DNA of 10,772 bases, from the UHGV virus genome UHGV-1443384; one strand, 5' to 3'. This document shows, piece by piece, positions 1-10,581 of this stretch. Within the stretch, counting starts at the first letter, position 1; each line of letters begins with the position of its first letter. The stretch comes from a virus. The notes below the pieces were generated by a model, which saw only the letters and a list, made by a program, of their open reading frames with translations, was not told where the DNA came from and made no database searches. The position numbers and the translations under genes were made by a program.

Positions 1-82
1 CAGTTATCATCTTCGGTTACGGTTATCGGCAGAACGCCCTGCCGCTGACAAGAGCTTATTTGCCTGACCAATCTACTCCACA

Positions 83-103
83 TGATAGATAACTATCATT
101 TAT
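83..103. repeat. Putative attL core (direct repeat tgatagataactatcatttat)
   Basis: Matches 10561-10581 (tgataaataactatcatctat) at 19 of 21 positions. Arm-type repeats lie on the element side of both copies, as expected for attL and attR. Confidence 0.45.
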
Positions 104-170
104 ATCATTTAGTTAATTAGTCTTTATTTTTCATTATGTTGCAAATAACAAGCCTGTCAAAAACAGTGAT

Positions 171-227
171 ATTAACTACACCATTAACTACACCGCTTCA
201 CGAACAATATCGAACAACCGCGAACAA
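171..227. promoter_or_regulatory. Integrase arm-type binding repeats, left arm (2x ATTAACTACACC, 3x CGAACAA phased at 10 bp)
   Basis: ATTAACTACACC at 171-182 and 183-194; CGAACAA at 201, 211 and 221. The same motif pair recurs at 10417-10484 next to int. Confidence 0.45.
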
Positions 228-267
228 AGATCAACACGCTTTAATCATTATCATTTTCCGGCTATCC

Positions 268-456
268 GTCATGAAGCTAGTGGATGATCTGCGTGGTGAT
301 TTCCACCATTCAGAGCAGGGGCGGTCATCATGCCCATGCCATAACAAAAACCCCATATTCGTGGTTTTTCTGTGTTGTGGCTATTCTGCCGTTGCCGTGC
401 TGGTGGATATTTCCGTTATGGGGATCACCATATCGGCATCATGCCCACCAGCGTGA
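268..456 (+). CDS. Hypothetical small protein (62 aa) with Cys-rich polar N-terminus and a single hydrophobic helix; doubtful
   Basis: ATG at 268 in frame with track ORF 136..456. Hydrophobic stretch IFVVFLCCGYSAVAVLVDISVMGITI. No clear Shine-Dalgarno. Confidence 0.15.
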   Translation, partial: VMKLVDDLRGDFHHSEQGRSSCPCHNKNPIFVVFLCCGYSAVAVLVDISVMGITISASCPPA

Positions 457-1076
457 AGCGTTTTTCATTTTTCGCGGGTATAAAAAATCGATGGGGCTGG
501 CAGTCCAGAAGACGTCAGGGTACAGAGATTTGCCCCGCCCCTCCCTGTGCATAAGCACAATAAGTAACCGAAGGCGGAATTCCGCCCTCGGTACTCACAT
601 ATGAGAAACGATATTTCTTCCACCGATACCCTTTATTTGGGTATCGCGAGTAAGCCCCAAAATCTGGGTGTTACTCTTACTACCCAAACTACGGGTAGTT
701 TCCGTAGTTTCATGGTCGAGTTGCAGATCTGCAACTCACCCACCAGCCAACGCAATTTTGCGTTATCGGGAATATCAGCAAGTTAGCACAGAAATAACTC
801 AGGCAGATACAAAACTCAATTTTGAGGTTTGCTTATTATTCAGTTGGTTAACATCCCTCAAAACTGAGGACTGTACCCAAAGCTATTTTTATAGCTCCGG
901 CCTCAGCCGTTGGCTGTTCCCGAAAATATCAGTCAGTTACGTTAACCGCTAATTTCTGCCTTTGGTGTGAATACTGTCGCTTTAACCTACGGTAATTGTT
1001 CTGCCTCGGTGCGTGTCACCGCCGTAACCGCGCCAGTAAACCCCACAGATTCGTGGTTTTCCTGAATATCAGGAAT

Positions 1077-1358
1077 CTACCGCCGCAACCGTTCCGGCTT
1101 CTTCCACTGGTAAGTATTTTTCGCGCTCTCCCTCCGTTGTTGAGAACGGCGACGGTATGCCAGCAACTCAAGGACTCTTGTTCGTATGTTGCGCATATCC
1201 ACGCCGTTAAGCTCAATACCATCACGGCGCATCACCTCAGCAACAACACGCACATAATTTTCAGCGGTCACGCTGTCCGGCTGTGTGGCCTGTTCGTCAT
1301 GCTGCTGGCTGATTCCGACGACGCGGCGGATTAATCCCAGTAGTTCGGCTTCAGTCAT
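1077..1358 (-). CDS. Hypothetical protein (93 aa), Arg-rich C-terminus, immediately downstream of TerS
   Basis: Track ORF; RBS GAGGG 5 nt before the ATG. Sits where lambda has the large terminase gene A but is far too small and unrelated to it. Confidence 0.55.
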   Translation of the reverse strand: MTEAELLGLIRRVVGISQQHDEQATQPDSVTAENYVRVVAEVMRRDGIELNGVDMRNIRTRVLELLAYRRRSQQRRESAKNTYQWKKPERLRR

Positions 1359-1431
1359 TGTGCCCTCATCGTTCTGATAGCCTGGTGTCGTCGGGTCCTT
1401 CCTGGAATTATGGCCCGTTACGGGGCGGCGG

Positions 1432-1974
1432 TTACTCGCCTTTGTTCTCTAGCAACTTCTCAGGCGCGTTTCCGGTAGTTTCCATCAGGTAATCAGCCAG
1501 TATCTGTGGCAGGTTTTCGTCAAGTCTTGCACATGCGTTACATGCTTTGGCTATTTCCCTTTTTAGTTCATCCAGCATATACGGCCTTATATCGGGAAAG
1601 CGCCTTTGCATTGTGAGCGGGAGGCTGTCCATGATTGATGAAATCTGACTCGCTAGTTTTGAAATCGCGTAGATGCAAAACTTTGTATCAATCACCTCGC
1701 CGCGTTCGCGCTCGTTTTTAAGTTCCTGCGCTTCCGCCTGGGCCGTCATTAATCTGATTCTTACGCGTAAAAGTTCATCATCATCAATCTCGCCTTTGTC
1801 GTTTGTAAGCTGGTTAATTGCATTGTTAACCCTATTGTCTATCACGCTAGCAACATCATAAAACGCCTCACGGCCTTTACGCTCAACGGGAGTTACTCCC
1901 CACTTGTCGAACGCTGTCGCACTTACGCGGCAGCTTTGCGCCATAGTTTTTTTGTTCATCAGGTGCGATTTCAT
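1432..1974 (-). CDS. Terminase small subunit, lambda Nu1-like (satellite TerS / packaging-redirection candidate)
   Basis: C-terminal two thirds align with lambda Nu1 (ours RLMTAQAEAQELKNERERGEVIDTKFCIYAISKLASQISSIMDSLPLTMQRRFP vs lambda RLTRAQADAQELKNARDSAEVVETAFCTFVLSRIAGEIASILDGLPLSVQRRFP). The N-terminal DNA-binding part is diverged. Start chosen at the ATG preceded by GGGGA; the track ORF extends to 1986. Confidence 0.85.
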   Translation of the reverse strand: MKSHLMNKKTMAQSCRVSATAFDKWGVTPVERKGREAFYDVASVIDNRVNNAINQLTNDKGEIDDDELLRVRIRLMTAQAEAQELKNERERGEVIDTKFCIYAISKLASQISSIMDSLPLTMQRRFPDIRPYMLDELKREIAKACNACARLDENLPQILADYLMETTGNAPEKLLENKGE

Positions 1975-2001
1975 CAATATCCCCACTTAGTTAAGGTTTC
2001 A

Positions 2002-2150
2002 GGTTGGTGTGTTGGTGTTATCTTTCCCTTTTTATTCATAGAGATAGAGCGAAAAACAAAACCACCACCACCAACCCGAAAAGGCTCATAAATAGCGAAA
2101 ATCCGCAAGGTCGCCGCCCCGTAGCCTGCCGGATCGCCGGAAAGGACCCG
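2002..2150 (-). other. Lambda-type cos site (cosQ-cosN-I1 conserved, cosB-like repeats diverged)
   Basis: Minus strand reads cgttctggctggcgggtcctttccggcgatccggcaggctacg GGGCGGCGACCT tgcggattttcgctatttatgag, near-identical to the lambda right end, the 12-nt cohesive end (plus 2108-2119) and the start of the left end. Inverted ACCACC/GGTGGT-rich repeats at 2002-2019 and 2060-2077 replace the lambda R sites. Confidence 0.85.
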
Positions 2151-2175
2151 CCAGCCAGAACGGGCCCTAATTTCA

Positions 2176-2520
2176 TCAACCAATCAACTTATTGCGTCCT
2201 TTCAGGGCATTACGCCTGGCGCGTTCAATCTTGAGGCATAACGCCGCATCAGGTTTTTCGGGGGTGGGAACAAGGCAATAATTTGATGCGCGCGGAATGT
2301 TGTTAATCCACGCAACAACCTCGCTTAAATACCATGCCTTGCGCCCTTTCGTAACCTGTACGCGTTCGGGGAACTCTCCGCGAGCCTCAAGGTTTAGCAA
2401 TGTGCGACGGCTAAGGGTTGTAAGCTCCACTACCTGATCCATATCAACAAGGCGCTCGCTTAAACTCATTTTGTCATCGATATCTAATAGCTCTCGTAGC
2501 TGACTATCTCTTTCAATCAT
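2176..2520 (-). CDS. AlpA-family HTH DNA-binding protein (114 aa), second copy in the element
   Basis: Motif VVELTTLSRRTLLNLEARGEFPERVQVTKGRKAWYLSEVVAWI fits the phage AlpA / excisionase-type HTH pattern. RBS GAGGT; start overlaps the stop of the upstream gene. Confidence 0.65.
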   Translation of the reverse strand: MIERDSQLRELLDIDDKMSLSERLVDMDQVVELTTLSRRTLLNLEARGEFPERVQVTKGRKAWYLSEVVAWINNIPRASNYCLVPTPEKPDAALCLKIERARRNALKGRNKLIG

Positions 2521-2529
2521 TCTCGTACC

Positions 2530-2871
2530 TCACACACGTGCCAGCGGCTGAACAGAAATACCTGAGCCAACAAACGCAGCAACTTTTGCTGATAGTTGTG
2601 TTACAGACTCAGGCCAGTTCAGAGCATCAACATTTAAGACGCCGGTTTTATAAACCTGAGCCTGCGTTTTTGTCGCTGTATCGATTTGTACAGCGGAAAC
2701 ATAAACAGCTTTGCCTGCGCTCGTTCCATCCCATACCACCAGTGCACCAGTTGCATCTTCTTGCATCAGTGGCGTAAATGCAGGAATTACCCCTTTATTA
2801 GCTGAAAATATCCCCAACGTAGTAACCAGTGCTTCAGTGCCAGCCATGAGTTCAGTGTAATGAGTAGCCAT
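2530..2871 (-). CDS. Head decoration protein, lambda gpD-like (113 aa)
   Basis: Aligns with lambda gpD (TPLM...LVVWDGT...YKTG...WPE...AAFVGSGISV vs TPLM...LVAWDGT...YKSG...WPE...TAFAGTAISIV). Strong RBS GGGGGAG; 9 bp after the capsid gene. Confidence 0.8.
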   Translation of the reverse strand: MATHYTELMAGTEALVTTLGIFSANKGVIPAFTPLMQEDATGALVVWDGTSAGKAVYVSAVQIDTATKTQAQVYKTGVLNVDALNWPESVTQLSAKVAAFVGSGISVQPLARV

Positions 2872-2880
2872 TGCTCCCCC

Positions 2881-3921
2881 TTAACCAATGCGAACGGTAA
2901 CAAAACGATTGATGCGGGCCGGTATTGGTTGCGGTGCGCTGTGCGTCTGTACATATTCAATAGCCGGATCACCTGGTACGATGTAATTTTTCGGCGCAAG
3001 TTCGGCTTTAGTCAGCCCCATTCTGATTAACTCAGGATCCTGAATGCCACCGTAGGCAACGATGCCCTGTAATGATGTGTTGCCAAGCACCATCAAATCA
3101 GGATCAAGGAAATATTTTTCTTTGCCGTCCTCGTCGGTATAACGTCCGCTATATACCACAATAGCAACATCGCCAACGTAACCCTTGAAGCTTACAGAAT
3201 CCCCAAGATTTTTCAGGGCCGTTTCAAGAACGGAATTAGATCCCCGTCGAGTATCAAGGCAATCTTTTACTGCTTTAAAGGCGCGGTATTTTTTCCATAC
3301 GTTGCGGCCCATTACGATGATATTTGTAGTACCTTCGCTGATTTCTGCGTACTCTTCGATGTCATCGTTTGGATCAAATGTTGATAAATCTCTACCGCTC
3401 CACTCCGTGCCGCCGGACTGCGTGATAATATTTTGTGGTTTTATATTCCAGTCCAGTTCATAACGTTCAATTCCATCACCTTCAATGATATTTTTCCCCG
3501 TTGTAACCGCCTGAACAGCAAGCCACTCAATACGCGCACGAATTGCCTGCGCTTGTCTTACTAACGCTCGCTTTATTTTGAAACTGCGTGATGAATATGC
3601 ATTGAATTGTTCAGGTGATACGCCTGGTTGACGAACGGCTATTTTATTTGGGTCGATACTACTTTTTGGCTTCATATAGCCAGGGCGAATTACTTTTGAT
3701 TCGTAGCCTTCATCGCGTGAGACTTTACTACCAACCATAGGGGAACAAAATGCAGCCATCGGGATGTCTGGATCGTCAATAATATCAAGCGCAATATCCC
3801 GCGTCTCAAATGTAACGACTCGCTTAAAAAACAGGTTTATAAATAAAGAATTAATCTGCCATTGAATATCTTCGGCATTAACAACCTGTATTAACATGGC
3901 TGGCGAATATAAATCACTCAT
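2881..3921 (-). CDS. Major capsid protein, lambda gpE-like (346 aa)
   Basis: Collinear similarity to lambda gpE over the full length (NIITQSGGTEWSGRDLSTFDPNDDIEEYA vs NNITQSGGTEWSKRDKSTYDPTDDIEAYA; FKAVKDCLDTRRGSNSVLETALKNLGDSVSFKGYVGDVAIVVYSG vs FKAVKEKLDTRRGSNSELETAVKDLGKAVSYKGMYGDVAIVVYSG). RBS AAGAGG. Confidence 0.9.
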   Translation of the reverse strand: MSDLYSPAMLIQVVNAEDIQWQINSLFINLFFKRVVTFETRDIALDIIDDPDIPMAAFCSPMVGSKVSRDEGYESKVIRPGYMKPKSSIDPNKIAVRQPGVSPEQFNAYSSRSFKIKRALVRQAQAIRARIEWLAVQAVTTGKNIIEGDGIERYELDWNIKPQNIITQSGGTEWSGRDLSTFDPNDDIEEYAEISEGTTNIIVMGRNVWKKYRAFKAVKDCLDTRRGSNSVLETALKNLGDSVSFKGYVGDVAIVVYSGRYTDEDGKEKYFLDPDLMVLGNTSLQGIVAYGGIQDPELIRMGLTKAELAPKNYIVPGDPAIEYVQTHSAPQPIPARINRFVTVRIG

Positions 3922-3973
3922 ATAACCTCTTAATACTTAGTAAAAGTGTCGCGTTAATTTTATCATCTGCCTT

Positions 3974-4002
3974 GTTTGGCATCTTTATGCATTGCTATGC
4001 AA
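3974..4002 (-). promoter_or_regulatory. Candidate promoter of the capsid-cos-TerS operon with a 13-bp palindrome in the spacer
   Basis: Minus strand TTGCAC-17-CATAAA (weak -10, suggesting activator dependence). Palindrome ATTGCtatGCAAT at 3981-3993 lies in the spacer. Confidence 0.3.
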
Positions 4003-4106
4003 TAGTGTGCAAAGTTTCAATCTTCGTTTATTTATCCGGCGTTACGTGTCATTCTGTACAGCGTTACAAGTTCAAAGACATAAATTATTCTCTTTGGTGA
4101 TGAAAG

Positions 4107-4132
4107 GGTCGGAATATTCCGGCCTTTTTTTT
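4107..4132 (+). terminator. Rho-independent terminator, plus strand (stem GGTCGG/CCGGCC followed by T8)
   Basis: Hairpin 4107-4124 followed by tttttttt at 4125-4132. Implies a short plus-strand transcript originating in 3950-4100. Confidence 0.55.
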
Positions 4133-4149
4133 GCGTAGTGTGACGGACT

Positions 4150-4177
4150 CAACTGATAAAAGCCGGATTGCTCCGGC
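4150..4177 (-). terminator. Rho-independent terminator for the ssb transcript (minus strand)
   Basis: Minus strand hairpin GCCGGAgcaaTCCGGC followed by TTTTATCAGTT, 17 nt after the ssb stop. Confidence 0.5.
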
Positions 4178-4193
4178 CTCTGTTACTCGTTGC

Positions 4194-4616
4194 TTAAAAC
4201 GGTATGTTATCCCCGTACGGATCATCATTTCCCGCCTGTTGTTTTGCCCTGTTCAGCGCGTCAGTAGCCTGGCCCTGTTGACCTTTTTTGCCGCCCGGTT
4301 GCGCCGTTCGCGCACTGATTACGCTGTCTGCAATAACCTGCCAGCCCTGCCGCGTTTCCCCGTTCTGGCCTGTCCACTGGCTCACCTGCATGTTACCCGC
4401 CACGCTCACCAGTTCGCCTTTGTGGTGTTTTGCCAGTGCGTCGGCCTGTCTGCCAAACGCCAGGACAGATAACCACATCGTCGCCGTTCCGTCATCTGCC
4501 TGGCTGCACGGCAGGGGAACCGCCATACTCGCCATCGCCATTTGTGTCCCTTTGCTGGTGGTCTTTAACTGCGGGTCAGCCACCAGCCGCCCGTAAGCCG
4601 CTATCTGTGCTGTCAT
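4194..4616 (-). CDS. ssb: Single-stranded DNA-binding protein (SSB-like OB fold, 140 aa)
   Basis: N-terminal YGRLVADPQLKTTSKG and WLSVLAFGRQAD fit the SSB OB fold. Gly/Gln-rich linker and acidic tip DDPYGDNIPF resemble the SSB C-terminal DDDIPF tail. Confidence 0.75.
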   Translation of the reverse strand: MTAQIAAYGRLVADPQLKTTSKGTQMAMASMAVPLPCSQADDGTATMWLSVLAFGRQADALAKHHKGELVSVAGNMQVSQWTGQNGETRQGWQVIADSVISARTAQPGGKKGQQGQATDALNRAKQQAGNDDPYGDNIPF

Positions 4617-4858
4617 GCTGTCTGCTCTCCGGTTTTAACGTTGATGGTTGTCACCTGTTCCGCTTCGGCAATCTCCCGTTCTGTCAGCGTGGCAAAGTTT
4701 GCTGCCGCCGTGGTCATGAATGCGCTTATCAGTTCGGGATGTGCTTTTGCGTACCCTTCTCCCGCGTTGCGGTCGATGATTTTTATCGCCACCCTCAGCC
4801 AGTGTTCTGTCAAATCAAGGGCGTGAGATTGTGGTTTTTTTGCGTGCTTCGTTGTCAC
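4613..4858 (-). CDS. Hypothetical protein (81 aa), translationally coupled to ssb
   Basis: GTG start with RBS TGAGGT. Its TGA stop overlaps the ssb ATG (ATGA overlap). Confidence 0.55.
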   Translation of the reverse strand: MTTKHAKKPQSHALDLTEHWLRVAIKIIDRNAGEGYAKAHPELISAFMTTAAANFATLTEREIAEAEQVTTINVKTGEQTA

Positions 4859-4904
4859 AGGCTTTACCTCACAGCAATAAAATAAAATTTTTGCATTTTA
4901 ACCC

Positions 4905-5131
4905 TTCACCTGTTCACCTTTTGAGATTTTCCCTTTTTATTCATAATGTTAAGGGGTGAACAGTTTCACAAAAACTATTCACCAACTGTTCACCACTGTT
5001 CACCCTTAAAGCTCAATAAATAATCAAAAAGGTGAACAGTGAATAGTTTGGTGAACAGTTCACAAATAACTGTTCACCATATAATATACTGATATAAAAG
5101 ATATTTATAACAGGGTGAACAGTGGTGAACA
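4905..5131. repeat. Replication origin with P4 alpha-type iterons (about 10 copies of TGTTCACC / GGTGAACA, both orientations) and AT-rich unwinding stretch
   Basis: Octamers at 4911, 4955, 4987, 4998, 5031, 5050, 5071, 5114 and 5124, plus partial copies. AT-rich block at 5080-5110. Immediately downstream of the primase gene. Confidence 0.8.
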
Positions 5132-5145
5132 GTTATTCCATAAGT

Positions 5146-6963
5146 TTAATTTTTGCTGTCGTCATTTGTGACCGATGCACATGATGGCATCCAGTCTTCT
5201 GAATCCTCTGTCAGTGTCACATTTGAACGCAAACCGTGCTTCGTTTTCCGTTTTATATACTCCCTGCCATATTCCGCCATTGCCCCCGGCATATCTTTAC
5301 CGAAGCGCGTCAGTGTTACAGGTTTACCGAATCCGTGTGCCCTCATATATGCCAGATAGGCGTGATAAAGATACCTGCGCGGACTGAACGGAATAATTTC
5401 GGCATTACCCACTAACAGACCATCACACATTACCGACGACATGAGATAGCCACAGAAGTCCACCAGCGAATCGCCCTCGCGTTTTATCACCAGAGCTTCT
5501 TCTGATTTCTGCTGCTCATACAGCAGGCGTTTAGCTTCGTCCTGGTCAGAAAAACGAGTAAGCAGATGGCGAATCACAACCGCCAGCTCTCCTTCTATTT
5601 TTTCTGCCAGCATGGGGTCGCGCTCGTTCTCCGGTACAACCTCCGAAAAATTGAATATCACCCGACGACGTGAGATCCCCCCGCTGCGGTCACTGAATGA
5701 CATGGCGTTATTGTTCACCGCCAGCACGACCGCCTGAATGCGTGTTGAGTAGGGGGCTTTATGCTTCGGGTCGATTGCCACCTTGTCACCGCCTGTAATA
5801 GCCTTAATTCCTGCGCCATCACCAGCGTAGCGGGTCATATCCGGCATGATAATCAGCGAAAAGCCAACCACTAACGCGCGTTCCCTTGCATCTTCCAGCG
5901 CCTTCATGCTTGCCGATACTGTGTTGGCCTTACCCGCCAGCATGGTGCAAATCTCCGCCATCACGCTTTTACCACTTCCCCCTGGACCTGTTACCTCAAT
6001 GAATAACTGCCAGTCGTACCGGTTCGCCAGCACCATGAATAATGCAGCCAGCACGCGATCCGTCTTGCGGTCATTCTCTGCCACCGAGCAGCGTAACCAC
6101 TTCCAGAAATTCGGCGCATGTGTTGCCAGCGTTTCCCCCTCTGCTGGTGGGCTGAAAGGTAATTCACTGGCAATTAACAACCAGTCGTTTTTGTTATGCT
6201 CCCGAAAATTACCTGTTCTGGTATCAAATACCCCGTTACTGAATCCAATCAGGTTACGGGCTGTATTCCCCATTACAGGCAAACTTAACTTCATGGTATC
6301 GACCGCCGATTTAATGGCGTTCTGCGAATAGCTGATCTCCGCATCAATGAAAATCTGTGCCATAGCTCGCTGTAATTCTTTATCCTGTACTGGCTCCCAT
6401 ACAACGCCGTTGTAATGGTGAACAGTGTCAGAGTCAGCATGAATCGCCAGTTCACCGCCATAATGTGCCAGGAGAACTTCGCCGCGTTGACTTGCTCCCA
6501 TCTGGTTAAGCGCCAGTGATGAAGCGTTATCGTCTTTTACCCGCTCTTTTTTCTTTACAGGCAGTTCAACTACCTTTTTCTTTTCCGTCAGCTCTCCCCG
6601 CTCACGTTCCAGATATTCGCGCCAGTTCTCCCGTTTCTGGCTGTGCATTCCTTCAGGGTAATAATCAGCATCCCTGACACCTGCCGCTGCCAGTTTCTGC
6701 CCGATGGTATTAACAAGCCCCGGACGCAATAACCCCGCCTGATAGAGACGCACGCGATAGCGTCCGTCCGGTACGATTTGCAGGTTGTCCAGTTCGGCAA
6801 GTTGTTGCTCTCCAAGCCAGACAGGTGGCACGTTATCGCCAGCCAGTCGCCCGTCCTGTTCCTGCCACTGTTTCGCATGTGCCCACGCATCACTACCCGC
6901 AAAAATGATGACTTCCGTCATTTTGTCACGCGGCTGGTGTTTTAAATTTGGCGCTTTTTTCAT
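5146..6963 (-). CDS. DNA primase/helicase, P4 alpha-like (PICI pri-rep type)
   Basis: Walker A motif VTGPGGSGKSV in the central region; large size; adjacent TGTTCACC iterons. Start set at the ATG (6963) preceded by GGAGAG and overlapping the upstream stop; the track ORF begins at GTG 6978. Confidence 0.85.
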   Translation of the reverse strand: MKKAPNLKHQPRDKMTEVIIFAGSDAWAHAKQWQEQDGRLAGDNVPPVWLGEQQLAELDNLQIVPDGRYRVRLYQAGLLRPGLVNTIGQKLAAAGVRDADYYPEGMHSQKRENWREYLERERGELTEKKKVVELPVKKKERVKDDNASSLALNQMGASQRGEVLLAHYGGELAIHADSDTVHHYNGVVWEPVQDKELQRAMAQIFIDAEISYSQNAIKSAVDTMKLSLPVMGNTARNLIGFSNGVFDTRTGNFREHNKNDWLLIASELPFSPPAEGETLATHAPNFWKWLRCSVAENDRKTDRVLAALFMVLANRYDWQLFIEVTGPGGSGKSVMAEICTMLAGKANTVSASMKALEDARERALVVGFSLIIMPDMTRYAGDGAGIKAITGGDKVAIDPKHKAPYSTRIQAVVLAVNNNAMSFSDRSGGISRRRVIFNFSEVVPENERDPMLAEKIEGELAVVIRHLLTRFSDQDEAKRLLYEQQKSEEALVIKREGDSLVDFCGYLMSSVMCDGLLVGNAEIIPFSPRRYLYHAYLAYMRAHGFGKPVTLTRFGKDMPGAMAEYGREYIKRKTKHGLRSNVTLTEDSEDWMPSCASVTNDDSKN

Positions 6964-7259
6964 TTCTGCTCTCTCCACGCGGCAATCATGTTTTTCAGTT
7001 CCTGTAGTTTTTTATCAACATCCATACATGACACATGGTTATTTCTGGAAGGCGGGATTTCCCGCCGGAATCTGCTAATAAAGATCTCCACGTTCAGCGA
7101 ACTATGAAATGAATAGCCATCACGAATAAAATACACACGGTCAAACATCAGTTCTTTTACCGTTACTCTGTTACCGTTCTTATCCAGATAAATAGCGCCG
7201 GGGATAATTTTGGGGTGTGCATAACCGCTGGCAGTCAAGCCAGATAAATATGTTCTCAT
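6960..7259 (-). CDS. Hypothetical protein (99 aa), coupled to the primase
   Basis: Track ORF; TGA stop overlaps the primase ATG. Occupies the position of the small genes upstream of alpha in P4-like elements. Confidence 0.55.
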   Translation of the reverse strand: MRTYLSGLTASGYAHPKIIPGAIYLDKNGNRVTVKELMFDRVYFIRDGYSFHSSLNVEIFISRFRREIPPSRNNHVSCMDVDKKLQELKNMIAAWREQK

Positions 7260-7265
7260 GATTAT

Positions 7266-7586
7266 TTATCCCCGATTTGAATCAGTATTCGCTTTCTTTA
7301 TGGCATTTAATGCATCTGTGGTATTTTCAATGGTGCACCGTAACGAAATATCAAACTGCCCAAGCATTGCCAGTAACAAACCGATATTACCCATATCAAT
7401 GCGCATGGCCTTTTCGTCATAGTCCTCATTTTCTGACGCATGCCACATCAGGCTACCAATTGACGCAATACCCATTGATATATTGTCAGTAGCCCCATCC
7501 GCAGCGGAATAAACCTTTTTAGCAATATCATGCTCACAGTTAAAATGCGGATTAATCAGGTACTGGTAATTTGACATATCAGGCAT
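7266..7586 (-). CDS. Hypothetical protein (106 aa)
   Basis: Track ORF; strong RBS AGGGGG before the ATG at 7586; acidic protein. Confidence 0.55.
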   Translation of the reverse strand: MPDMSNYQYLINPHFNCEHDIAKKVYSAADGATDNISMGIASIGSLMWHASENEDYDEKAMRIDMGNIGLLLAMLGQFDISLRCTIENTTDALNAIKKANTDSNRG

Positions 7587-7782
7587 GGCACACCCCCTGA
7601 CGAATACGGGCAGCGAATACCATCACGCAGCCAGCCGGAGATTGCTGGCGTGCTTCCTGTTCGCTGGTGGCCTCAATGGTAATCACGCGCGGTTGTGCCG
7701 TGCTCAGGGCGATAAAACGCCAGATGTATTTATTCAGGTTGTGCGAGTCCCGCCCTTGCGGGTGTGTGGTATGATTTCTCAT
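7579..7782 (-). CDS. Small protein (67 aa), possibly Icd-like (host cell-division inhibitor family); first gene of the primase operon
   Basis: Internal ATG at 7782 with RBS GAGGTA within the spurious 359-aa track ORF; stop overlaps the next start. C-terminus ...SPAGCVMVFAARIRQGVCHA recalls Icd-like proteins from memory only. Confidence 0.4.
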   Translation of the reverse strand: MRNHTTHPQGRDSHNLNKYIWRFIALSTAQPRVITIEATSEQEARQQSPAGCVMVFAARIRQGVCHA

Positions 7783-7880
7783 AGCTACCTCGATACTTTC
7801 GCTATCGTTGGTGGTTAGACGCCCTGCATGTGTTGCGAGCACTGCGGGGCGTTGCTTAATTTGAGTGACAAAACTCAAAC

Positions 7881-7959
7881 TGTGCGCACAGATTAAAATC
7901 ATGTGTGCGCACATGTCAATACTTAACATCTCATTTTTTTTGCTGTATTGTGTGCGCCC
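7881..7959. promoter_or_regulatory. Divergent promoter/operator switch: TGTGCGCACA palindromes at 23-bp phasing overlapping back-to-back promoters
   Basis: Perfect TGTGCGCACA at 7881-7890 and 7904-7913 (inside the 16-bp palindrome catgtgtgcgcacatg), half-site at 7950-7959. Minus strand TTGACA-17-TTTAAT has one operator in its spacer and one at the start site. Candidate plus promoter TTAACA-17-TATTGT. Confidence 0.5.
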
Positions 7960-7987
7960 ATAAAGTCCATTTAAGTGAGGTGCATCA

Positions 7988-8185
7988 ATGTCTAGCGGTA
8001 ACACAAACAACAAATCAGCAAAGAAAAATATTCGATTCCCACATGAGCTTATAGATGGGATTGATGCCAGCGTTGAACAAGAAAAATTAACTAATCCTAG
8101 TGCTAATTTTTCCGCATGGGTCTTAGATGCCTGTGGACGCAAATTAAAATATGAACAGCGCCGGAAGGCCAAAGAATCAGAATAA
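7988..8185 (+). CDS. YlcI/YnfO-family (DUF3950-like) small protein, possible ribbon-helix-helix regulator (65 aa)
   Basis: Strong RBS GTGAGGTG. Motif NIRFPHELIDGIDASVEQ...NFSAWVLDACGRKL resembles E. coli prophage YlcI/YnfO proteins (NIRFP...NFSAWV..AC.RRL), recalled from memory. Confidence 0.55.
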   Translation: MSSGNTNNKSAKKNIRFPHELIDGIDASVEQEKLTNPSANFSAWVLDACGRKLKYEQRRKAKESE

Positions 8186-8242
8186 TCACTATCAGCGCCG
8201 TGGTGTGAGTAACTACGGCGCATTGCTATGCAGGGCAACACA

Positions 8243-8416
8243 ATGACCGATAAAGAATTGACCAAAACATTATCACCGACACGGAAAAGACGGCGCAGAA
8301 AGATAGAGCATGAATCAGAAAGATTCGCACCTTGTTCGTTTGCTCTTGAGAAATTCCTTAAAGAGCGCAGGAAAAAACTCTCGTTGCAAACCTTGGAACG
8401 AACCGAATCTGACTGA
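8243..8416 (+). CDS. Hypothetical highly basic small protein (57 aa, RKRRRRK tract)
   Basis: Downstream of the YlcI-like gene in the same orientation; operon ends at the terminator at 8481-8508. Weak RBS; the start could be the ATG at 8228. Confidence 0.35.
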   Translation: MTDKELTKTLSPTRKRRRRKIEHESERFAPCSFALEKFLKERRKKLSLQTLERTESD

Positions 8417-8480
8417 TCAAATTGCCCACCAGCCAGCAAATCGCTATGATGTTCGGGCTTATGTTTAGTGTTTTCCCATT

Positions 8481-8508
8481 GGCGACCGCCCCCGGTCGCC
8501 TTTGTTTT
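8481..8508 (+). terminator. Rho-independent terminator, plus strand (GGCGACC gccccc GGTCGCC followed by TTTGTTTT)
   Basis: 7-bp GC stem with T-rich tail, between the plus-strand two-gene operon and the convergent alpA. Confidence 0.6.
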
Positions 8509-8527
8509 ATGTGTCATATGCTCCCCT

Positions 8528-8737
8528 TTACGCTGCCTTTCCTGAATTAATGCGATCCCGGCTTTTAACCCATTCCATAACCTCAGACTTAACCCAGCCA
8601 ACCGAACGACCTCCAAGACTGATACGGGAGGGAAAGCGGCCTTGTTTTTCCATCTCATAACGAGTTGTACGGCAAACGCCTGTTAGCTCTCTGCATTCTT
8701 TTTCACGGATTACACGATCTTCATTTATTTCGCGCAT
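8528..8737 (-). CDS. alpA: AlpA-family transcriptional regulator / excision-associated HTH protein (69 aa)
   Basis: Motif RVIREKECRELTGVCRTTRYEMEKQGRFPSRISLGGRSVGWVKSEVMEWV fits the AlpA pattern. Start taken at the internal ATG (8737); the track ORF extends to GTG 8821. Lies downstream of int as in PICI and P4-like elements. Confidence 0.75.
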   Translation of the reverse strand: MREINEDRVIREKECRELTGVCRTTRYEMEKQGRFPSRISLGGRSVGWVKSEVMEWVKSRDRINSGKAA

Positions 8738-9154
8738 AAAAAGCCCTACATAAAATTTACGTATAGAAATTTTTGTTTCGCTGTGGATATACGGGAAGGA
8801 ATACTTCTTAGCTTTTTTCACCTCTTAAATTGAATACGTAACCTTTCTGAACTTTATGTTCGTCAAAGTTCGCTAGAGTTTGCTGCTGTTCATAAAATCG
8901 TGTCACGAGTTTTTAAGCGACGCAACAAAAAATGTCGTCATTTGGTATGATACTTGAATTATCTTATTAAAAACAAATAGATAAACCATCAGGTGTTGGA
9001 ATAATCAAGAAACAGAAAATAAGAACTCAGAAGAAGATATTTCAATTTTTTCGATGGTTGACACATATAAAGTGAAGATATTTGCAGATATTTTCCGATA
9101 TTCTACGATTTATTCACGGCTGTAATCTCTTAAAGAAAAAACAGCCGTAATTTG

Positions 9155-10393
9155 TCAAGAATTTTGGGTGTAAATTCGCGGGGTCATAACAACGATTTTT
9201 TCATCATTGTTCTGGAGAAGCTCGAGACGGTCTACCCATAGATTAAGAGCATCACGTTTTGCATCAAGATAGCGGGAGTGGTTATAGACTCGTTGCATCC
9301 CTGGCATCTGGTGGGCTGTAAGCTGCTCGACAATATGCGGATCCACGCCTAAATCGTTCAGCATGGTTGTAAATGTGTGCCGGATATCGTGTAACGTCCA
9401 GGGGGCTTGATTAATTCGTCTGTGCGCTGTTCTTCCGTACTCTGCTACCGAAGATTGTCCTTTCAGTTCACCAAGCAATAAGCCCGTGTGTCTGTTCTGC
9501 TCCACCAGCTGCGTGATGAACGGCAAAATGCTTTCCGGTATTGGCCTGAATATGGCGACCTTCGTTTTGCTGTGCTCCTTCGGTACCGTCCAGAGCATTT
9601 CTTTAAAATCCCACTCCTGCACCTCAGAGCGCCTTAGCTCGGTGGTACGGCATCCGAAAACAATCAGGAGGCGAATTAGGGCGCTGTAGTACGGCGGGAA
9701 TATTTTGTCATCCAGGGCGCGGAGTAATTCCCCAAGCTCCTTGTTTGTTAGTACGCGCTCGCTCACTTCTGCTTTTTTTCCCACATCACCGACAACCATA
9801 TCATCAAGAACGTTGCTGATTGCGTATCGTCGTTTTCGGCAGTACTTAAGCGCCTGTTTACATACCTGTAGCAAAAATCCGGCAGATACTGGGCTTCGCT
9901 TTGCCATCTGGTCAAAACATGCCAACCAGTGCCGTAGCTCGCATTTTTCCAACGGCATAGCGCCAATCTGGCTGATTATGTGTTTATTGATCCGGCTTTT
10001 CAGTGATTCGTAGTCAGTGCGCTTTTCCTTTGCATACGATTCAAGCCAGTAAGTGAGCGCTTCCTTAACTGTCACGGGGGCTAACGCATCCTGTACAGCA
10101 CGATTAAGCTCATAGCGCGGATTTTTCCCCTCAGCCAGCCAAGCGCGACACTGTGCCGCTTTTTCCCTGGCTGCTTTCAGGCTCAGATCGGGATAATTGC
10201 CCAGTCTCAGACGTTCCGGTGATACCTGCCTACCAGTTCCAGCCCTGTAAGTGAAATACCAGGTTAACAGGCCGCTGGTGGAATGTCTTACGCTAAGATT
10301 GCCACCGTCATTAAAAAAGGCGTTTTTTGTGGTTGGTGATCCGCTTAATTTTCGTAAAAGAGTGTCGCTAAGTCTATGAATTGCGCTGCTCAT
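9155..10393 (-). CDS. int: Tyrosine site-specific integrase, P4-type (412 aa)
   Basis: C-terminal catalytic motifs WTLHDIRHTFTT (H-x-x-R) and RVYNHSRYL (catalytic Tyr); size and N-terminal arm-binding-type region typical of the P4 integrase family; adjacent to the attR arm repeats. Confidence 0.9.
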   Translation of the reverse strand: MSSAIHRLSDTLLRKLSGSPTTKNAFFNDGGNLSVRHSTSGLLTWYFTYRAGTGRQVSPERLRLGNYPDLSLKAAREKAAQCRAWLAEGKNPRYELNRAVQDALAPVTVKEALTYWLESYAKEKRTDYESLKSRINKHIISQIGAMPLEKCELRHWLACFDQMAKRSPVSAGFLLQVCKQALKYCRKRRYAISNVLDDMVVGDVGKKAEVSERVLTNKELGELLRALDDKIFPPYYSALIRLLIVFGCRTTELRRSEVQEWDFKEMLWTVPKEHSKTKVAIFRPIPESILPFITQLVEQNRHTGLLLGELKGQSSVAEYGRTAHRRINQAPWTLHDIRHTFTTMLNDLGVDPHIVEQLTAHQMPGMQRVYNHSRYLDAKRDALNLWVDRLELLQNNDEKIVVMTPRIYTQNS

Positions 10394-10416
10394 GTTTCGC
10401 GTTTCCGGTCATCAAA

Positions 10417-10484
10417 ATTAACTACACCATTGACTACACCGTGCATCGTACAAGGGCAAACAGTGACGAACAAGGGCGAACAAG
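10417..10484. promoter_or_regulatory. Integrase arm-type binding repeats, right arm (ATTAACTACACC, ATTGACTACACC, CGAACAAG repeats) overlapping the int promoter region
   Basis: Same motif pair as 171-227; CGAACAAG at 10467 and 10477, with degenerate copies at 10446 and 10540-10557. Confidence 0.45.
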
Positions 10485-10560
10485 AAAAACAAAATTTTCC
10501 TTTATAATCATATCGATGAATAAACACAACACACTACCACGAACACCAGCGAACACTAGC

Positions 10561-10581
10561 TGATAAATAACTATCATCTAT
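10561..10581. repeat. Putative attR core (direct repeat tgataaataactatcatctat)
   Basis: 19 of 21 identity with 83-103; lies on the outer side of the right arm repeats. Confidence 0.45.

Follow-up and report, generated by a model that had tools for sequence, protein, structure and literature searches.

A chimeric cos site is a published hallmark of phage-inducible chromosomal islands (PICIs) in Escherichia coli (PMC6092414, PMC6739421, PMC9026076), and three satellite packaging strategies have been characterized, namely carriage of the helper's cos, the pac-type small terminase subunit (TerS) of the pathogenicity islands of Staphylococcus aureus (SaPIs) acting together with Ppi, and Rpp (10.1101/2022.09.08.507074). 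Homologs of terS have been published in some Gram-negative PICIs (PMC6092414), and the SatelliteFinder preprint counts TerS, "responsible for redirecting the packaging", among the core markers of PICIs; in the literature searched, with most subscription journals outside the coverage, no experimental study of a cos-type PICI or satellite TerS was found. Helper-dependent induction, packaging and transfer have been shown only for EcCICFT073 (PMC6092414). Here we describe the packaging module (positions 1432-2150) of the UHGV virus genome UHGV-1443384, a stretch of 10,772 nucleotides that is referred to below, at its full length, as the window. Sequence comparison identifies this region as the packaging module of a PICI of the EcCICFT073 family, in which a lambda-type cos core is joined to a gene for a full-length TerS and to a cosB of a different kind. 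The satellite TerS probably binds this private cosB and recruits the large terminase subunit (TerL) of the helper to a helper-type cosN.

Two exact copies of the attachment (att) core ATGATAGTTAT, at 89-99 and 10567-10577, delimit 10.5 kb of the window, in which all genes are on the minus strand. The layout is that of a PICI, with the integrase gene at the end followed by alpA and a primase/replication module, and no genes for TerL, tail or lysis proteins were found in the 10.5-kb island, either with Pfam or in the Prokaryotic Genome Annotation Pipeline (PGAP) annotation of an identical copy that E. coli WP9-S17-ESBL-11 carries between clpS and cspD. The island is syntenic with EcCICFT073, the experimentally studied prototype, and two catalogued PICIs, EcCIIHE3034 and EcCI18098, have the same att core, cspD-clpS site and size (PMC6092414 Table S1).

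The part of cos that is expected to be read by TerL is of the lambda type. With coordinates counted from cosN base 1 on the minus strand, the 12-nt lambda cohesive end GGGCGGCGACCT occurs once in the window (2119..2108; 0.03 occurrences expected by chance), and cosQ matches lambda at 7 of 7 positions, both in agreement with the earlier note on this sequence. In an ungapped comparison with lambda (J02459) anchored at cosN base 1, identity amounts to 27/30 from -30 to -1, including cosQ, and to 41/47 from +1 to +47 (29/35 for +13..47), against 28/100 in the upstream control (-130..-31) and 41/98 from +48 to +145. The similarity to lambda ends at +48, where lambda R3 begins; R3 itself has been assigned to bp 50-65 (PMC9026076). 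The conserved stretch after cosN, which the earlier note took to be I1-proximal, is in fact the spacer between cosN and R3, I1 being located between R3 and R2. The shorter cosB that it described is real in that the TerS ATG is found at +146 rather than at +191 as in lambda, but the like-for-like shortening is 45 bp. The cosQ site occupies the same position, -30..-24, in lambda, in the CFT073 prophage and in all satellite loci, GGGTCCT is present in N15 as well, and the cos core is 84% identical to cos1 of EcCICFT073.

The assignment of the satellite TerS to the Nu1 type, already suggested from the letters alone, was borne out by the family-level searches: the protein matches PF07471 (Phage_Nu1) with E 9e-24 and 84.3 bits (cut-off 30) and phrog_57 "terminase small subunit" with E 5e-53 over residues 1-173, and shares 37% identity with lambda Nu1 over its whole length (E 2e-35). 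The best match of the TerS family profile in the PDB is lambda TerS, 6HN7_B (E 0.0014), with 1J9I also recovered; a single-sequence PDB search with TerS returned nothing relevant. Judging from the domain-by-domain comparison, TerS consists of an N-terminal DNA-binding domain of the N15 class, which by sequence is a predicted winged helix-turn-helix, a Nu1-like core and a variable C-terminal tail. The DNA-binding domain (residues 1-48) is 58% identical to that of N15 and 54% to that of the prophage L023, compared with 35% for lambda and 31% for the 21-like CFT073 prophage; in the central core, identity to TerS of the lambda and 21 types is 47-56%, the highest value being that for lambda; and the tail (residues 128-166) is 33%, 44%, 41% and 41% identical to N15, L023, lambda and the 21-like prophage, respectively. 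Of the proposal that a diverged N-terminus is combined with a conserved C-terminus, the first half stands, whereas the best-conserved part is the core and the C-terminus is the most variable part in the family. The closest phage TerS is N15 gp1 (48% overall), none of the 153 phage matches exceeds 60% identity, and the lineage to which the window TerS belongs was seen only in satellites.

Downstream of the cos core, the lambda signals are replaced, as had been claimed: no lambda R-site core was found in the cos region and R1 is absent, and instead of the lambda-type order R3-I1-R2-R1, an R3-like array and an inverted R2-like arm are found at the R3 and R2 positions. The array, GTT(GGT)4, falls within the R3 window (lambda bp 50-65, N15 bp 48-59). 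An inverted repeat, which on the gene strand reads TTTCGGGTTGGTG...CACCAACCTGAAA, has its first arm continuing into GTT(GGT)4; the arms, at 2069-2081 and 1997-2009, are complementary at 12 of 13 positions with 59 nt between them. The ACCACC/GGTGGT inverted repeats originally placed at 2060-2077 and 2002-2019 overlap these arms and are real, indeed slightly better than described.

This organization was compared across ten satellite loci, namely the window, EcCIIHE3034, four more from E. coli, two from Enterobacter/Citrobacter (TerS 56% identical to that of the window) and two from Citrobacter werkmanii (52%). In 10/10, the 700 bp next to cosN contain a single (GKT)n array in forward orientation, which starts at +45, +48 or +51, in one triplet frame that is also the frame of GTT GTT GTT at +51..+59 in N15. 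The lineages with the most distant TerS (52-56%) are among those with (GGT)n at the R3 position. The arrays are GGT-rich and then continue with GTTGTT, the window being the exception with a GTTTTT hexamer. An inverted ACCAAC is present at +106..+112 in 8 of the 10 loci; in those without the R2-like arm, no inverted (AMC)n array in the style of the remote rR2 of N15 was detected within terS by a simple scan for triplet repeats.

The number of GGT units varies from 2 to 5 between otherwise similar islands (window 2061-2075; L014-L017, L021), a variation that resembles repeat slippage and that moves the downstream sequence in 3-bp steps, with the TerS start at +140 in L014 and L015 against +146. 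At the corresponding place, the island of the Rpp type (L005 32613-32621) carries ACCACCACC at cos +55..63, the 9-mer which in EcCICFT073 cos1 is the proposed R3-PICI of Murialdo & Feiss (PMC9026076); islands of the TerS type carry its exact reverse complement, GGTGGTGGT, at +51..59 (window 2061-2069).

The R3 site of N15 has been defined experimentally at bp 48-59 (GAGGTT GTTGTT), lambda and 21 terminases do not package N15 DNA, and a "Monarch" group of phages possesses N15's recognition helix together with a complex cosB made up of R3, an IHF site, R2 and R1 (PMC4669245). In the phages N15, L041 and L023, the recognition helix reads ISVQAFDKWG and is accompanied by GTT repeats; in the satellites, it reads VSATAFDKWG, as in the window, or VGVTAFDKWG, and is accompanied by GGT repeats. 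As aligned here, helix and R3 site covary between phages and satellites. The window has GGTGGT at bp 54-59, against the GTTGTT core of the N15/Monarch class, and with a DNA-binding domain that is 54-58% identical it is, on these comparisons, a sister specificity of that class and not a member. The view that cosB and the DNA-binding domain had been replaced is correct in that those of lambda are gone, but what is found in their place belongs with the N15/Monarch class (58% identity to N15 gp1), with a shifted code.

A search for cosQ-N23-cosN across one genome per species yielded 22 loci, about half of which are chance matches in high-GC genomes or apparent lambda or cosmid contaminants. Two others, L023 and L037, are true lambdoid prophages of the Monarch-like kind in which TerS is followed by TerL. 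Their cos combines the lambda cosN with an R3 reading GGTGGTTGTTGTT, an inverted ACAACAACC at +110..+118, the same position as ACACCAACC in the window, and, by visual inspection, an IHF site that departs from the consensus at one position. Their TerS shares 49% identity with that of the window, with 54% in the DNA-binding domain. Given this likeness of layout, the cosB-terS cassette is related to phage sequences, and its probable source is a Monarch-like phage. Among the remaining loci, a lambda-identical cos region (+1 to +140 examined) with no intact Nu1 ORF (open reading frame) is present in assemblies of Alicyclobacillus ("plasmid"; L031), Raphidiopsis (L038) and Aeromicrobium (L043), and a near-identical lambda cos copy in a Nanosynbacter metagenome-assembled genome (L028); these copies look like lambda or cosmid-vector contamination.

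The same two prophages, which combine all these cos elements with both terminase genes, suggest a different explanation of the satellite cassette, namely that a helper of the N15/Monarch class reads the satellite cosB with its own TerS, and that the satellite terS is a captured copy which boosts packaging and confers no private specificity. Monarch-type phages are present in 220 of the 5,426 complete E. coli genomes that we surveyed, and the resemblance of their TerS to that of the window is compatible with this explanation. Nevertheless, we consider it quite improbable, because all satellites consistently have other residues at two positions of the recognition helix and another middle base in the R3 triplets, because the satellite cassette is about 3 times commoner than Monarch-type phages, and because relatives embedded in helper genomes (see below) carry the same private site.

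The boundaries of the cassette become apparent from the comparison with EcCICFT073. Patches of homology detected with blastn extend along the island and include the cos core and the region of a 93-aa ORF, which flank the cassette; positions 1432-2077 are the only stretch in that part of the island without an EcCICFT073 counterpart, and the slot is occupied there by cosB1 and rppA. The clearest case is the commonest E. coli variant (P0054; 659 contigs), which uses the EcCICFT073 att site beside phoQ. This phoQ-site relative (L014) is 94% identical to EcCICFT073 until cos1 +42, then unrelated, and homologous again from the inner edge of a second, inverted cos (cos2), which implies that the two inverted cos cores enclose a packaging-specificity unit of which there are at least two forms, rpp and terS. 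In the window, cos2 is reduced to a remnant: positions 1378-1430 are identical to EcCICFT073 cos2 at 52 of 53 positions, up to cosN base 8, and the truncation corresponds to a 177-bp deletion relative to EcCIIHE3034. Complete cos2 sites are retained in the relatives L014 and L021. Where cos2 is intact (L021 ~10045-10200, L014 ~3100-3260, L005 ~33170-33340), it has a phage-type cosB, which is 21-like in EcCIIHE3034, similar to that of the phage L034 in L014, and similar to that of the Leclercia prophage L042 in EcCICFT073; such islands may therefore carry a private cos and a helper-type cos in opposite orientations.

The location of terS in the exact rppA slot of the same island family raises the question whether TerS could act in the manner of Rpp, by co-assembling with the helper TerS through the core or the dimer interface of the DNA-binding domain, such that the mixed complex would read the cosB of the satellite but not that of the helper and the helper TerS would still be needed. 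The identity of the core to lambda-type and 21-type TerS is compatible with such co-assembly, RppA matches the TerS family phrog_57 via its N-terminal winged helix-turn-helix, and EcCICFT073 requires the helper TerS, with which Rpp forms heterodimers (PMC6739421). However, the window TerS retains the whole C-terminal region, which in Nu1 binds TerL and which is lacking in Rpp proteins (PMC9026076), and a complete TerS in principle needs no partner. Furthermore, there is no detectable similarity between TerS and RppA (no BLASTP alignment; hhalign probability 0.1%), and the protein does not conform to the description of Rpp proteins by homology to RppA/B/C, a length of 135-153 aa and the absence of a TerL-binding tail. 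An Rpp-like action of TerS is thus unlikely.

The cassette is widespread. It was detected in 732/5,426 E. coli genomes (13%), including O157:H7 and ATCC 25922, and in 722 genomes the terS ORF spans 80% or more of the query, whereas the rppA cassette is present in 97/5,426 (about 2%). Every inspected cassette locus is a PICI, across at least 3 att sites, and neither in the window nor in any satellite locus inspected is terS followed by a TerL gene, as is to be expected of satellites. The gene is under purifying selection: comparison with three relatives from E. coli gives a ratio of nonsynonymous to synonymous substitution rates (dN/dS) of 0.16-0.22 for the gene as a whole and of 0.05-0.14 for the part encoding the DNA-binding domain. 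In an alignment of 36 family members, mean pairwise identity is 0.80 in the DNA-binding domain, 0.77 in the core and 0.49 in the C-terminal tail. Because dS in the tail is raised (~1.0 versus 0.2-0.6 elsewhere in terS), a separate recombinational history of the tail appears to be a better explanation than decay. The survey with a full Monarch-type cosB and TerS (query L023:12365-13064) points in the same direction for phages: in addition to the 220 genomes with full matches, ~1,100 more match only the C-terminal half of TerS, and lambdoid TerS therefore appear to be mosaics of a DNA-binding domain/cosB module and a core/TerL-docking module. The domain pattern of the satellite family agrees with a private DNA specificity that stays fixed and a TerL-docking tail that would be exchanged for different helpers.

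These observations also bear on the notion that cos and terS are an inert relic of a decayed lambdoid prophage with no current function. The absence of TerL and the truncation of the second cos are what such a relic would show; but with an ORF preserved at this coverage in 722 genomes, dN/dS of ~0.2, cosQ and cosN conserved exactly, an ordered PICI architecture with intact att repeats and an R3 array conserved across genera, this notion is hardly credible.

As to the identity of the helper, relatives from Enterobacter and Citrobacter that have the same module of capsid, D, AlpA, cos and TerS genes are located inside lambdoid prophages. In five of these (L009-L013; gene at 7001-7513 in each), the major capsid gene of the prophage is interrupted by the island, and a truncated E gene precedes FI, Z, U, V, G, T and H; insertion in the helper capsid gene is the configuration of helper-embedded PICIs (PMC10111431). 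Both this embedding and the conservation of cosQ and cosN argue for a helper of the lambda-like kind, the TerL of which would cut the satellite cos. The helper could not be named from the TerS tail, no phage tail being close enough (best 53-55%, PhiR5_1 and the PhiR12 series). In L009-L013, genes for an FRG-domain protein and a DUF3892 protein lie directly after terS on the opposite strand.

Taken together, the data suggest a cos in two layers, where cosQ, cosN and the spacer to +47, which would be read by TerL, are lambda-like, and cosB, which would be read by TerS, is private to the satellite and comprises the (GGT)n array at the R3 position and, about 58 bp further downstream, the inverted R2-like arm. 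Under the proposed mechanism, a lambdoid helper would induce the island; the satellite TerS would bind its own cosB, recruit the gpA-like TerL of the helper via its C-terminal tail, which by likeness to Nu1 is the predicted TerL-docking region, and position TerL to nick cosN; and concatemers of the island would then be packaged, with termination through cosQ. The satellite cosB should not be recognized by the TerS of a lambda-type or 21-type helper, and the helper would also suffer interference from the competition for TerL. Of these elements, we infer DNA binding, TerL docking, independence from the helper TerS and interference from comparative analysis, by which this proposed takeover of the helper TerL is well supported. 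The earlier note had spoken of a self-contained module for stealing the helper terminase. The PICI setting without TerL, the discrete cassette, purifying selection, the satellite-only lineage and the relatives inside lambdoid prophages all favor that description, which nonetheless requires two corrections: cosB and the DNA-binding domain have not simply been replaced, and the C-terminus is variable.

Several observations weigh against the proposed mechanism. Over residues 128-166, no phage TerS has a tail that is more than 44% identical, and over a slightly wider span of 51 residues the maximum is 55%, so that the fit to a particular helper TerL is uncertain. AlphaFold models are of low confidence, with a mean predicted local distance difference test (pLDDT) of 60.6 and a predicted template modeling score (pTM) of 0.29 for the full-length protein modeled with the 36-sequence alignment, and a pLDDT of 55.5 for the N-terminal 64 residues. 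No IHF consensus with up to one mismatch was found between the arms (1997-2081), and the R2-like arm is absent from the Enterobacter group. The varying number of GGT units, with the accompanying changes in local spacing, is odd because the spacing between cosN and R3 is strict in lambda (PMC9026076). Finally, as mentioned above, the one tested relative, EcCICFT073, depends on the helper TerS (PMC6739421).

A broader interpretation, which we put forward tentatively and regard as possible rather than probable, is that the cosB-terS unit is a portable packaging-specificity cassette that resides between two inverted cos cores and alternates with cosB-rpp within one island family. Its private (GGT)n R3 code would have coevolved with the altered N15-class helix, the TerL-docking tail would be exchanged separately to match helpers, and islands with an intact cos2 would hedge between a private and a helper-type cosB.

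Table 1. Features of the satellite in the window, with cos coordinates counted from cosN base 1
Feature	Position	Strand	Basis or remark
Whole satellite, 10.5-kb PICI	89..10577	-	between clpS and cspD; two att core copies
Conserved 93-aa ORF downstream of terS	1077-1358	-	phrog_1561 (unknown function), E 1e-56
cos2 remnant, inverted, cosQ through cosN bases 1-8	1393..1430	+	its end is one base short of the TerS stop codon
Satellite small terminase TerS, 180 aa, Nu1 family	1432..1974	-	PF07471, phrog_57; ATG at cos +146
cosB-terS cassette	1432..2077	-	no EcCICFT073 counterpart; blastn mosaic maps
R2-like inverted arm AACACCAACACACCAACCTGAAA, cos +101..+123	1997..2019	-	inverted repeat with 2069-2081
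R3-equivalent GTT(GGT)4, cos +45..+59, proposed satellite TerS site	2061..2075	-	inside the R3 window
Lambda-type cos core, cos -30 to +47 (cosQ, cosN, cosN-to-R3 spacer)	2073..2149	-	lambda identity
cosN cohesive end GGGCGGCGACCT	2108..2119	-	single exact match, 12/12
cosQ GGGTCCT	2143..2149	-	7/7 versus lambda, at -30..-24
Second AlpA-like helix-turn-helix gene, directly upstream of cosQ, variable slot	2176-2520	-	PF05930
D-like decoration gene, 113 aa	2530-2871	-	Pfam
Lambda-E-like capsid gene, 346 aa	2881-3921	-	Pfam
SSB	4194-4616	-	Pfam
D5-type primase	5146-6978	-	Pfam
AlpA	8528-8821	-	Pfam
Integrase	9155-10393	-	Pfam

The remaining genes of the island (Table 1) call for a few comments. 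The satellite encodes homologs of the capsid protein E and of D (2530-3921), and no portal, protease or scaffold gene; the EcCICFT073 equivalents of these two genes are dispensable for transfer and interference (PMC6092414). The AlpA-like gene upstream of cosQ has a counterpart, 73% identical, in the equivalent slot of the Enterobacter helper-embedded PICIs; in EcCICFT073 and EcCIIHE3034, the slot contains an unrelated ORF of 137 aa. An exact IHF consensus, AATCAACTTATTG, is located at 2182-2194 on the plus strand, within the end of this gene and ~65-75 bp upstream of cosN; over the whole window, matches to the IHF consensus occur at chance level. A 69-aa ORF across cos (1974-2183, minus strand; PGAP/RefSeq "hypothetical protein", phrog_11159) was considered and rejected as a gene, given that its frame is broken by stops in 6 of 7 relatives, and is thus an annotation artefact. 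Conserved counterparts of the 93-aa ORF that lies downstream of terS are present in EcCICFT073, in EcCIIHE3034 and in the islands of O157:H7 and ATCC 25922.

If the proposed mechanism is correct, a cos-type satellite TerS with its own cosB and no need for the helper TerS would constitute a fourth, uncharacterized packaging strategy, borne by a cassette that is several times commoner in E. coli than the studied rppA type (13% versus about 2%). Such a cassette would provide a natural three-part system, in which a fixed DNA-binding domain and its site are combined with a conserved core and a swappable TerL-docking tail, and which could be used to study the specificity of TerS-TerL pairing, the origin of Rpp from TerS and the function of the N15/Monarch-type cosB, a question that Feiss and colleagues did not settle. 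In practical terms, the system could help to predict which prophages mobilize islands, and could serve PICI-based delivery vehicles with orthogonal packaging signals.

Among the known systems, lambda and gpNu1 share with the window the cosQ (7/7), the cosN (12/12), the Pfam family of TerS and the position and orientation of its gene relative to cos, but the window lacks the lambda R sites, I1 and R1, its TerS starts 45 bp nearer to cosN, and no gene A follows. The TerS of SaPIs belongs to a TerS family different from that of the Nu1-type proteins. According to the account of Ubeda 2007 given in PMC6739421, the TerS of SaPI1 and SaPIbov1 is a satellite homolog that redirects the helper TerL, as is proposed here; as presented there, it operates in headful (pac) packaging with Ppi, whereas the window is of the cos type, with precise cutting at a helper-type cosN. 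N15 and the Monarch phages resemble the window in the DNA-binding domain (54-58% identical), in G/T triplets at bp 48-59 in the same frame and in a lambda-like cos core, and the layout of R3 and inverted R2 matches that of the Monarch-type prophages L023 and L037; they are, however, autonomous phages with their own TerL that combine ISVQAFDKWG with GTT, whereas the window combines VSATAFDKWG with GGT and has no R1 and no IHF consensus.

Two PICIs come closest. EcCIIHE3034 has the same att core, site, 10.5-kb size, architecture and cos layout, and its 180-aa terS product is identical to that of the window at 155/180 positions; the interior of the window is mosaic relative to it, with another capsid/D type, the AlpA-like gene upstream of cos and the 177-bp deletion that truncates cos2, and the window is, by this comparison, a mosaic sibling of EcCIIHE3034. 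EcCICFT073, with its cos1 and RppA (Fillol-Salom 2018, 2019; Murialdo & Feiss 2022), belongs to the same PICI family and has the same gene order and the same slot after a lambda-type cosQ and cosN, with a foreign cosB at the R3 position, and in both islands this slot is flanked by an inverted cos2. The two differ in the orientation of the R3 9-mer (ACCACCACC at +55..63 in EcCICFT073, the reverse complement of GGTGGTGGT at +51..59 in the window) and in the protein encoded in the slot: RppA, of 144 aa, is without the TerL-docking tail and needs the helper TerS, whereas the TerS of the window, with 180 aa, is full length.

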